DNA from: Bacillota bacterium
GTDB lineage: Bacteria > Bacillota > Dehalobacteriia > UBA4068
Assembly (NCBI GenBank): GCA_050949225.1
Contig: JBMNFI010000002.1
Location: 197,942 to 261,941 of the forward strand
Reading direction: 5' to 3'
Length of the DNA: 64,000 bases
The position numbers and the translations under genes were made by a program. Shown here piece after piece: positions 7,832-10,065 of this stretch (position 1 is the stretch's first letter; each line of letters starts with the position of its first letter). The notes beneath the pieces are model-generated. The model searched no databases. It saw only the letters and a list, made by a program, of their open reading frames with translations, and was not told where the DNA came from.

Positions 7832-8554
7832 ATGAGATATCTTGCACATACAAAAGATGGAAAGATTTTTGTGCCAGAAGAGGAACATGAGTATCAGTCC
7901 CTTAAGGATCATCTTACCAGTGTCTCTCAATATGCGCAGGGTTTTGCAGAGGCTTTTGGGGCAGGAGAGGCCGGTGCTTTGATAGGCCGTTTGCATGATT
8001 TTGGTAAATACAGTGAGCTGTTTCAAAAGCGTATTCGAGGGGCCAAGATTAAATATCCCCATTCCTTAGAAGGAGCTAAAATACTCTCGGGGAAATCTGA
8101 TTGGATTGTAAATCTATATGGATTAGTGATTGCCAGTCATCATACGGGGCTTACTAATCTTGGTAATGTCGCCAGTGCAGGCGATGGATCGTACTATGAT
8201 AAGCTTTTAAATTATCAGAGTTTTCCCCATCCGGCAGAGGCAATTTTGCCTCAAGATGAGGGGGTTGCTCATAAAAAATTAAAACCTATTCTAGGGAATC
8301 TTCAGGCCTCTTTTTCGATAGCGGTTTATTTAAAGATGTTGTTTTCTGCTTTGGTTGATGCCGATTATACAGATACAGAGGAGTATATTTCCGGAAGAAA
8401 GAGAGAGCCAATTGCATATAATATCGCAGATCTGACAGGGATTCTGGAAAAAATCTGCCCGTTAATGATGGCCGGCCAATCAATAATATTAGAAGCGATA
8501 TTCTGCAAAGCTGCTTGCAGCATGCCCAAAAGCCACAAGGTCTGTTCTCCTTAA
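7832..8554 (+). CDS. cas3: Cas3 N-terminal fragment (HD nuclease domain); reading frame is broken near 8448-8453
   Basis: HD-domain motifs ([34 protein letters not shown]). The frame ends at TAA 8552-8554, while the helicase domain continues in the -1 frame. Confidence 0.8.
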   Translation: [240 protein letters not shown]

Positions 8555-10065
8555 CCGTACCAACAGGCGGGGGGAAAACTATTTCATCCTTGGCTTTTGC
8601 TTTGCAGCATGCTAAAAAACATAATTTAGCCAGAGTCATTTATGTGATACCATATACCAGTATTATTGAACAAAATGCCGAAGTTATTGCCGGATTAATC
8701 GGCAGACAATTTGTGCTGGAACACCATAGCAATGTTTTGCTCGATCATGATGAAGAAGTTAATTTTAGAAGAAAATGGGCTACAGAAAACTGGGACATTC
8801 CGGTGGTCGTTACCACCAATGTGCAGTTTTTTGAGTCCTTTTTTTCTCATAAACCTGCAGCAAACAGAAAACTGCATAATATCGCCAACAGTGTGATTAT
8901 TTTTGATGAGGCGCAGATGTTACCAACTGAGTATCTTTCCCCCAGCTTATATGCTATTAGTGAGCTGGTTTATAATTACCGTGTGACGGCGGTTTTATGC
9001 ACTGCTACTCAGCCGCGGATTGAAAAATTTAAGTATCAGGGGCTGGAGGTAACTGAGATGGTCGAAGATCCTTATCAGTTATCTAAGCAGCTTAAAAGGG
9101 TTGAATATCAATTTCTCGGTCAAAAAACGGACGAAGAAATTTTACAAAAACTGTTAGAGGCTAAAAGCGGCTTGGTGGTTGTTAATTCACGCAAGCACTG
9201 TTATTGGTTGCATCAGCAGCTAAAAGATCGAGGTGCGGAAAACATCTTTTGTTTAAGTACTTTGATCAGTCCTCTGCAACGGAAAGAAAAAATTGCTAAA
9301 ATCAAAAAAATGTTGGAGGATCAACAAGCGGTTTATGTTATTTCCACACAATTGATAGAAGCCGGGGTGGATATTGATTTTCCTGTTGTTTTCAGGAGTT
9401 TGGCGGGTGTTGATTCGATTATTCAAGCCGGAGGCAGAGCCAATCGTGAAGGTAAACTGGTTGATAGCAGAGGTCAGCCAAAGATGGGGCAGGTCTTTGT
9501 TTTTGAACCTAAAAGTGATTGGGGGCGTATCCCACCTGCTTTGAGAAATTTTGCAGAGATTACGAAGGAAGTTATTGGTCTTTTGGGGGAAAAGGCTTTT
9601 AGCCTTGAGGGCATCGAGAAATACTTTGACTTACTTTATTATACGAATGCGGAAGATGGTTTGCTGGATGATAAAAAGATTCTCAATGAGTTTAACGCAG
9701 GCGCAGGCAAGTATAATTTTAGAAATGTTTCAGAGAAATTTAAAATTATCGAAGATAATAGTTTCAGCATCATTATTCCGTATAGTTTTTGTGCAGATGA
9801 AAAAGAGCGAATAAAAGAACAAGAGTATCTGGACGAGCTGATAAATCAATTAAGGAATAATATCTTCAACAAAGAAACCATACGAGAATTGGGCAGATAT
9901 TCGGTATCTGTGTATAAAAATGAGCGGCGGCTATTACAAGATCAGGGAGTGATTGAAACACAAGAGGATTGTCTGATCTTAAATAACAAAAATTATTATG
10001 ATCAGATGACCGGATTGGAGATTTTTACAGAAGAAAATAAGAACGCTGAAGCCTTCTATCTTTGA
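8515..10065 (+). CDS. cas3: Cas3 helicase fragment (SF2 helicase, type I); second piece of a frameshifted cas3
   Basis: Walker A [8 protein letters not shown], DEAQ-type box FDEAQ, helicase C-terminal motifs ([10 protein letters not shown]). This frame is open from 8422 and the track ORF starts at TTG 8515. Confidence 0.85.
   Translation: [516 protein letters not shown]

Follow-up and report, generated by a model that had tools for sequence, protein, structure and literature searches.

The locus described here raises the question of whether a type I-C CRISPR-Cas system whose cas3 gene appears to lack one base can still carry out interference, and what the state of that gene has to do with the phage DNA lying inside the adjacent array. 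The window (the whole stretch of 64,000 nt that was analyzed) belongs to the metagenome-assembled genome (MAG) of an uncultured Bacillota bacterium, and its features are listed in Table 1. Direct reading of the window sequence gives six A residues at 8448-8453 in the context GGAAAAAATC. The HD frame starts at ATG 7832, reaches a stop codon at 8552-8554 and encodes 240 aa, which are native through K208 and are followed by 32 out-of-frame residues. The helicase frame, with its nearest upstream stop codon at 8419-8421, stays open to 10065. The preliminary description of this DNA had proposed that a single-base frameshift in an A homopolymer splits cas3 between the HD and helicase domains, with the HD frame ending at 8554 and the helicase frame open from 8422, and that A7 in place of A6 would restore a continuous protein. 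The run, both frames and both coordinates were reproduced, and insertion of one A yields a continuous 744-aa Cas3 with exactly the junction quoted earlier. The shift falls at codon 208/209, between the cas3_HD (residues 24-182) and cas3_core (residues 241-544) NCBIfam profiles. In the interval that can hold the shift, from the opening of the helicase frame at 8422 to the start of the conserved LP.N[DN]G motif at about 8455, A6 is the sole homopolymer. Chance is not at issue here, because the frame break is a structural fact of the sequence.

Table 1. Coordinates of the cas operon, the CRISPR array and the phage-derived inserts in the window.
Feature	Position	Strand	Remarks
Promoter-like site upstream of cas3 (TTGGTA, 18 nt, TG-TATAAT)	7772..7801	+	consensus match only
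cas3 5' part: HD nuclease domain, 32-codon out-of-frame tail and stop	7832..8554	+	TIGR01596 cas3_HD
cas3 3' part, -1 frame: linker, SF2 helicase core, C-terminal domain	8422..10065	+	TIGR01587 cas3_core
A6 homopolymer	8448..8453	+	putative site of a 1-nt deletion; predicted ancestral GAA AAA AAT (E-K-N)
cas5c	10135-10815	+	TIGR01876, above curated cut-off
cas8c	10779/10812-12602	+	TIGR01863, above curated cut-off
cas7	12602-13459	+	TIGR02589, above curated cut-off
cas4	13446-14117	+	TIGR00372, above curated cut-off
cas1	14114-15145	+	TIGR03640, 460 bits vs cut-off of 385
cas2	about 15150-15440	+	TIGR01573, above curated cut-off
CRISPR array, leader-proximal	15585..16086	+	8 identical 33-nt repeats, 7 spacers
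Phage head module, 8,836 bp	16087..24922	-	exactly between repeat 8 and repeat 9
CRISPR array, distal	24923..25022	+	repeat 9, spacer 9, repeat 10 (terminal, 1 mismatch)
Second phage remnant	25023..28732	-	directly after repeat 10; begins inside scaffold-gene homologue

Apart from the break, the repaired protein has the properties of a type I-C Cas3. It scores 75.9 bits against cas3_HD TIGR01596 (cut-off 43.45) and 129.7 bits against cas3_core TIGR01587 (cut-off 102.45), and it contains the invariant HD residues H27, H55-D56, H77, H103-H104 and D176/D178 as well as the SF2 helicase motifs I (GGGKT), II (DEAQ) and VI (QAGGRANRE), which are invariant in the alignment. When it was aligned with 17 single-chain homologues (43-58% identity), the alignment was gapless only with one base added at A6; the invariant residues N218, R221, I224 and C228 sit just past the shift, and the columns at the A-run are K/N-rich in the homologues, so that A-rich codons are natural there. 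The single-chain I-C Cas3 structures 8zns_A (E 9e-99) and 8g9u_P (E 6e-97) match across the junction and share with this gene the domain order, the HD motifs, helicase motifs I, II and VI and the C-terminal domain. The operon place is the same too, with cas3 first in the order cas3-cas5c-cas8c-cas7-cas4-cas1-cas2 beside an array of 33-nt I-C repeats. Neither a split nor a frameshift was found in any of the ~120 best homologues, and no break occurs in the 17 aligned ones; the full-cover matches (~100 of the 120 listed, leaving aside the 516-aa helicase fragment of the locus itself, the other listed matches being shorter or partial) are single chains of 711-759 aa plus one 1099-aa fusion. Unlike these, the present gene is broken at codon 208/209 and as it stands cannot encode a single chain, its HD and helicase frames lying one base apart. 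There is no second lesion across the 744 cas3 codons. The same undamaged state would also be expected if cas3 were still in use.

The rest of the locus looks complete. All six other cas genes are present beside the array, and the adaptation genes, described earlier as intact, bear this out with cas4, cas1 and cas2 scores above the curated cut-offs. The array holds 10 repeats in total, and it is identical in JGI contigs L007, L011, L013 and L014, thus giving no spacer turnover between samples.

We compared the A-run with other assemblies of the same locus. A6 is identical in five further contigs, two from JGI metagenomes (3300060803 and 3300060680) and three from Logan run assemblies (SRR31061295, SRR31066172 and SRR31065934), which with the window bring the total to six separately assembled contigs and two pipelines, although their consecutive Ga and SRR accession numbers mean that they may come from one study and possibly from one sampled population. 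Over 8-9.5 kb, the Logan contigs share 99.99-100% identity with the window. At the level of assembled sequence the run shows no length polymorphism (A6 in 6/6 contigs). The six contigs differ at SNPs 6355, 6416 and 8945, the last a nonsynonymous S to I change in the helicase part, and form at least three SNP haplotypes; since they share A6 in spite of these differences, the frameshift predates this divergence of strains. The 249-aa HD ORF is on record for 7 contigs and the 516-aa helicase ORF for 9 contig records. The 5.8 billion protein clusters searched contained the 516-aa fragment but no intact allele, the next relative being 56% identical, and a scan of GTDB species representatives for an intact A7 allele returned only a 58% relative. 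The exact DNA pattern with either A6 or A7 had no match in JGI metagenome_contigs. The closest GTDB relative reads GGCAGGATGCCCCAAAAT at this site and has no A-run there.

These data bear directly on the two options raised in the preliminary description, a homopolymer sequencing error or a genuine inactivation, for which a comparison with cas3 of related strains had been suggested. That comparison gave A6 in all five other contigs and no A7 allele, and the presence of A6 in six contigs of at least three haplotypes favors inactivation. Homopolymers are classic sites of indel error, and an error here would mean that the true genome carries A7 and an intact cas3; but the same error would have to recur in separately assembled, mutually SNP-distinct contigs, a six-base run is on the short side for a systematic error, and no other broken gene is visible in the window with its 226 A/T runs of at least six. 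With 86% of the window in long ORFs as well, a general homopolymer error can be dismissed, and a sequencing or assembly error at the A-run is scarcely credible. Another explanation, implied by the NCBI annotation of the HD piece as Cas3'' and the helicase piece as Cas3', is that the two ORFs encode separate working subunits. Naturally split Cas3 occurs in other type I subtypes, likewise as two adjacent ORFs, one HD and one helicase, and in the present case the catalytic motifs are kept in each ORF. A natural split would be expected to give each gene its own start codon and ribosome-binding site, to retain the conserved residues and to be shared by relatives, none of which applies here; the two ORFs overlap out of frame. 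The promoter-like site (10/12 consensus matches, extended -10) and a GGTG Shine-Dalgarno-like sequence at 7823-7826 precede ATG 7832, and the promoter-like site favors this start over ATG 7805, which was chosen by the gene callers and gives the 249-aa HD product. (The exact look-up of the 240-aa HD product gave no match.) For the helicase, TTG 8515 is the only ATG, GTG or TTG codon between 8422 and Walker A; no Shine-Dalgarno sequence was found in the 15 nt before it (attctgcaaagctgc), the ORF beginning there overlaps the HD ORF by 40 nt, and no internal promoter was found on the + strand from 7802 to 9613. Residues 209-228, including N218, R221, I224 and C228, are encoded by neither ORF, the last 32 residues of the HD product are nonsense, and relatives among the matches listed and both solved I-C Cas3 structures are single-chain. 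A functional split is thus highly improbable.

Two further explanations were considered. One is recoding, in which slippage of the ribosome (-1, on A-AAA) or of RNA polymerase (on A6) restores the frame often enough to supply functional Cas3 at a deliberately low level. If a P-site tRNA-Lys slips from AAA 8450-8452 to AAA 8449-8451, its pairing is fully restored and exactly the E-K-N junction results, cas3 is otherwise undamaged, and an AGGGA Shine-Dalgarno-like sequence at 8437-8441, 8 nt upstream of the A-run, loosely resembles the upstream stimulator of dnaX but could be a chance match. On the other hand, the zero frame (G GAA AAA ATC) contains no X XXY YYZ heptamer, leaving a single-tRNA slip only, and there is no stimulatory structure 5-9 nt downstream of the slip site: the folding energy of the RNA of 8454-8540 is -13.6 kcal/mol, which makes it less stable than shuffled controls, whose mean is -18.8 (z = +1.63). 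For transcriptional slippage the run of 6 nt falls short of the ~9 or more A/T residues expected, below the length at which such slippage turns efficient. The frameshift is absent from all of the ~120 best homologues, those of 56-58% identity included, and the closest GTDB relative lacks an A-run at this site. Recoding is very improbable. The other is that the A-tract is a contingency locus, a reversible ON/OFF switch of interference that was caught in the OFF state in these samples. This would fit a homopolymer lesion that one added base reverses, in an otherwise pristine gene and at a position where the K/N-rich columns of the homologues make A-rich codons natural. Tracts of 6-7 nt are short for phase variation, though, and neither the uniform A6 of all 6 assembled contigs, with at least three haplotypes and no length polymorphism, nor the closest relative without an A-run points to such a switch, which we consider unlikely.

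The best explanation is therefore that type I-C cas3 has genuinely lost one A from an ancestral A7 run (GAA AAA AAT to GAA AAA AT), and that interference was probably lost or strongly reduced as a result; we put the probability of this reading at roughly 0.8. Translation from ATG 7832 would give a 240-aa product in which the HD domain is followed by the nonsense tail. Because the helicase part lacks a usable start codon, full-length Cas3 would be made in very small amounts or not at all. Cascade (Cas5c, Cas8c and Cas7) should still be able to assemble and bind its targets, and Cas1, Cas2 and Cas4 should still be able to acquire spacers, but bound targets would no longer be nicked and degraded, or only to a much smaller extent, so that interference and primed adaptation would fail or be greatly weakened. 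In the sampled natural population the lesion appears to be fixed. It is probably recent in evolutionary terms, because the rest of the gene is undamaged, and gain of one A could in principle revert it. We infer this loss of interference, its recency and its reversibility from sequence. Full-length Cas3 may still arise in trace amounts by a -1 slip, or through reversion, both being compatible with the sequence. One of the Logan contigs (SRR31065934_7076) carries an extra 1-nt deletion in cas5c at 10182-10184, and this frameshift, seen in one assembly, fits relaxed selection on the interference module.

A frameshift of this sort is an ordinary bacterial route to switching off CRISPR killing and is of an already known kind. 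A review that discusses escape from self-targeting notes how easily cas3 is disrupted in type I systems (Wimmer and Beisel, 2020; PMC6990116). As in other cases where a cas3 pseudogene or mutation abolishes interference of this type (PMC6990116), only the effector nuclease is lost here and Cascade and the adaptation genes are intact. Two things set this case apart: no self-targeting spacer was found in the window, and the lesion, shared by all sampled strain variants, amounts to one reversible base of an A-tract. The nuclease-loss state has been predicted in reviews to be common, possibly permitting CRISPRi-like regulation (PMC6990116), and this locus would be a clean natural case of it, with Cascade and the adaptation genes kept and the lesion fixed across several strain variants. 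The type I-C system of this MAG is best counted as deficient in interference. Its public annotation as Cas3'' and Cas3' is misleading and hides the lesion; a survey of 'complete' CRISPR-Cas loci, or one in which a split cas3 marks the subtype, would place the locus wrongly.

The cas3 frameshift is unsurprising, and the phage head-gene fragments that abut intact repeats are odder. The head module between repeats 8 and 9 encodes capsid, scaffold, MuF-like, portal, TerL, TerS and Gp10_C-like proteins, small ORFs and HicA/HicB. Its capsid gene lacks the last ~16 codons, and the match to the complete 318-aa capsid of related phages stops exactly at 16086/16087. At the end of the second remnant is a minor capsid protein that is truncated at its N-terminus. 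The two fragments are homologous to each other (25021-25078 vs 17325-17382, 90%; 25099-25509 vs 17683-18093, 94.6%). It had been suggested that loss of cas3 would explain how a phage-like element and possibly self-matching spacers are tolerated at the array. As stated this is unsupported: none of the eight complete spacers matches elsewhere in the window at up to 8 mismatches on both strands, so the phage DNA beside the repeats needs no tolerance today. A historical link between cas3 loss and tolerance of the phage DNA is possible. The same scan with three junction pseudo-spacers gave a single match (25023-25057 vs 17327-17361, 6 mismatches), which arises because the two phage fragments are homologous, and short-BLAST against relatives of the phage gave chance 11-13-mers only. 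TTC is the PAM expected for type I-C. We also considered the junctions as former spacers, but the PAM-equivalent is CTT on the left (in an 82%-identical intact phage) and CAC, ACT or CTA on the right; none is TTC, and this model is unsupported. For a phage-borne repeat serving as attP or as a mini-array, the exact repeat and the junction sequence are both absent from IMG/VR, and megablast against GenBank phages gave no match.

Phage DNA between intact array repeats has also been described for prophage PhiAP1.1, which integrates into the CRISPR repeats of the type II-A system in S. pyogenes (Varble et al., bioRxiv 10.1101/2020.10.09.333658). In contrast to PhiAP1.1, the inserts here lie in a type I-C array and are internal phage pieces with truncated capsid and scaffold genes and no integrase or att-like organization. 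The cas3 lesion and the odd array could share one history, in which a Cas3-less locus that could still bind targets and integrate DNA captured phage DNA twice at spacer positions, but we regard this as decidedly unlikely. It would cover both the 8.8-kb head module bounded by intact repeats and the fragment right after the terminal repeat; capture might have proceeded via Cas1-Cas2 integrating kilobase-long fragments or via spacer-guided recombination. If true, a Cas3-less type I-C locus would be a sink that domesticates phage DNA and does not destroy it. One of the Logan contigs (SRR31065934_7076) carries an extra 1-nt deletion in cas5c at 10182-10184, and this frameshift, seen in one assembly, fits relaxed selection on the interference module.

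The cas3 gene at the head of a complete type I-C cas operon is split over two frames (see the table below). All the other operon genes exceed their curated NCBIfam cut-offs, which agrees with the preliminary description in that the adaptation genes are intact, and a leader and a CRISPR array with 33-nt repeats lie 3' of the operon. The sequence between the two frames is GGAAAAAATC, with exactly six A residues (A6) at 8448-8453. It had been described from the sequence that one A added to this run (A7) joins the two frames into a continuous protein, and this was correct in every detail, including the quoted junction in the resulting 744-aa product. 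Our main reading (probability about 0.8), based on sequence comparison, is that the single-base frameshift represents a genuine, recent and in principle reversible loss of Cas3, by which interference and priming would be abolished or greatly diminished, with Cascade and Cas1/2/4 still in place.

Coordinates of the cas operon, the cas3 frames and the phage-derived segments
Feature	Position	Remark
Promoter-like TTGGTA-18-TGnTATAAT	7772-7801	
Type I-C cas operon	7832-15440	complete: cas3, cas5c, cas8c, cas7, cas4, cas1, cas2
HD frame of cas3	7832-8554	ATG 7832; stop 8552-8554
Helicase frame of cas3	open to 10065	last stop 8419-8421
Phage head-module DNA	16087-24922	8,836 bp, within 16054-25057; bounded exactly by intact repeats 8 and 9
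HicA/HicB toxin-antitoxin pair	24342-24913	array-proximal end of phage fragment; HicB stop 9 nt from repeat 9
Second, different phage remnant	25023-28732	starts directly after repeat 10, inside a scaffold-gene homologue

The repaired protein contains cas3_HD (residues 24-182) and cas3_core (241-544) by NCBIfam and matches the solved single-chain type I-C Cas3 structures 8zns_A (E 9e-99) and 8g9u_P (6e-97); the 8zns_A alignment, as printed, spans the junction. When it was aligned with 17 homologues (713-759 aa, 43-58% identity), the junction was gapless, and the invariant residues N218, R221, I224 and C228 directly after it were readable in the helicase frame only. The frameshift is therefore confined to 8422-~8455, where the A-run is the sole homopolymer. 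Relatives are K/N-rich at the columns aligned to the run, which fits an ancestral GAA AAA AAT. In the same alignment the HD and helicase catalytic motifs are all intact and no second lesion was found in cas3; we infer that the repaired protein is the real ancestral protein. The nearest genome, a Lachnospiraceae MAG, has the same operon and an intact cas3 (58% identical) with no A-run at the site; the species itself has no entry in the GTDB representative set and in the JGI contig collection searched.

The preliminary description had considered either a homopolymer sequencing error or a true inactivation, to be decided in part by comparison with related strains. Five further contigs over the cas3 site came from exact-protein look-up of Cas proteins encoded nearby (JGI Ga0591958_0002565, sample 3300060803; JGI Ga0591962_0000024, sample 3300060680, 308 kb; Logan SRR31061295_19921, SRR31066172_130281 and SRR31065934_7076). 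A6 is present in 5/5 of these strain-level contigs, which may be one population sampled repeatedly, as consecutive accession numbers suggest one study. Identity to the window is 99.97-100%, but the contigs differ among themselves: at least three haplotypes can be told apart by the SNPs at positions 6355, 6416 and 8945, and the frameshift is common to all three. The 249-aa HD ORF occurs on 7 contigs, and 9 contig records list the 516-aa helicase ORF. No intact cas3 allele was found among 5.8 billion protein clusters, in which the best match was the 516-aa fragment at 100% and the next a protein at 56% identity. In the window, A/T runs of at least 6 number 226 and long ORFs cover 86% of the sequence, which gives no indication of systematic homopolymer error. 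In the NCBI annotation (7805-10065) the halves appear as Cas3'' (MGI6361759.1, 249 aa, ATG 7805) and Cas3' (MGI6361760.1, 516 aa, TTG 8515) without a pseudogene label. The useful results, as read from the assembled contigs, are that the cas3 frameshift is real and not an error, that it is fixed in the sampled contigs, possibly from a single population, and that it is mis-annotated in this record as a natural split.

Small indels separate the window from the JGI contig L007 at 5454 (3 nt inserted beside an A8 run) and 5645 (an A7 run altered by 1 nt). Both are intergenic, near a tRNA at 5365-5449, and vary between strain variants; the population thus shows variation in homopolymer length outside cas3.

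Could the two pieces act as a functional Cas3''/Cas3' pair, as annotated? This appears unlikely because the helicase piece has a poor start: before Walker A its frame contains no ATG or GTG and only TTG 8515, the 15 nt 5' of which lack a Shine-Dalgarno sequence, and the helicase ORF overlaps the HD ORF by 40 nt. A protein begun at this TTG would also lack residues 209-228, four invariant positions among them, and the HD ORF product consists of 208 native residues followed by 32 nonsense residues. Programmed recoding that restores the frame has little support, since the zero frame contains no X XXY YYZ heptamer, the RNA 3' of the A-run folds less stably than shuffled controls (z = +1.63), and none of the relatives has the frameshift. 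Low-level slippage is possible: tRNA-Lys can shift back by one base on A-AAA with perfect re-pairing and would then yield the exact repaired junction, and AGGGA is located 8 nt 5' of the run.

Inactivation of cas3 by a homopolymer frameshift, as in the main reading, is a familiar type of event that is to be expected; the ease of cas3 disruption is stressed in reviews (PMC6990116). Two observations, each a single case, are in line with relaxed selection acting on the interference module. The first is an S/I nonsynonymous polymorphism in the helicase part of cas3. The second, seen on one contig (SRR31065934_7076), is an additional 1-nt deletion near the 5' end of cas5c (CCC to CC, equivalent to 10182-10184) which shortens the called Cas5c to 196 aa; it could be a second interference-module lesion in a subpopulation or a single-contig error. 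The array is identical across all contigs covering it, which gives no indication that spacers are still being acquired. Self-matching spacers, suspected in the preliminary description, were not found: 0/8 complete spacers match the window at ≤8 mismatches.

The phage-like element reported at the array is present, and stranger than had been implied. From 16087, past repeat 8, the sequence is a phage capsid gene starting 46 nt short of its natural end, and homology to the intact 318-aa capsids of related myovirus-like contigs ends exactly at 16086/16087. The head-module order from the capsid is scaffold, MuF, portal, TerL, TerS and HicAB, to 24922, followed by repeat 9, one spacer and repeat 10, which is terminal and degenerate. 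The second remnant shares 90-95% identity with 17325-17382 and 17683-18093 of the first fragment and ends in an N-terminally truncated minor capsid protein adjoining host genes. Four JGI contigs reproduce the repeat-phage arrangement.

Prophage integration into CRISPR repeats has been reported in S. pyogenes (bioRxiv 10.1101/2020.10.09.333658), whereas the pieces here come from the interior of phage genomes and lack an integrase. Possible insertion routes include spacer-guided recombination and long-fragment integration by Cas1-Cas2. The type I-C PAM is TTC. In the PAM-equivalent position the left junction has CTT, as seen in an 82%-identical phage, and the right junction has CAC, ACT or CTA; because the canonical TTC equivalent is absent at both repeat-phage junctions, the junctions are not supported as former spacers. 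Capture of kilobase phage DNA at spacer positions by an I-C locus that was interference-dead but integration-competent is an improbable reading, and a causal link between the phage inserts and the loss of cas3 is at most possible.

The 7,415-bp contig L015 (JGI 3300061563 Ga0591957_0019742) is a circular permutation in which 21744..25509 is joined to 18094..21742, with the size expected of an excision product from two 411-bp direct repeats. In L017 (Logan SRR31066037_311580) HicB is joined to the capsid gene via a single CRISPR repeat. These contigs represent circular or tandem forms of the element, or else graph artefacts where a repeat is about as long as k or shorter. An Rfam GP20-b RNA motif lies inside the second remnant at 27263-27320 (-), downstream of the gene for the truncated minor capsid protein; it scores 43.9 bits, with the gathering score at 36.2.
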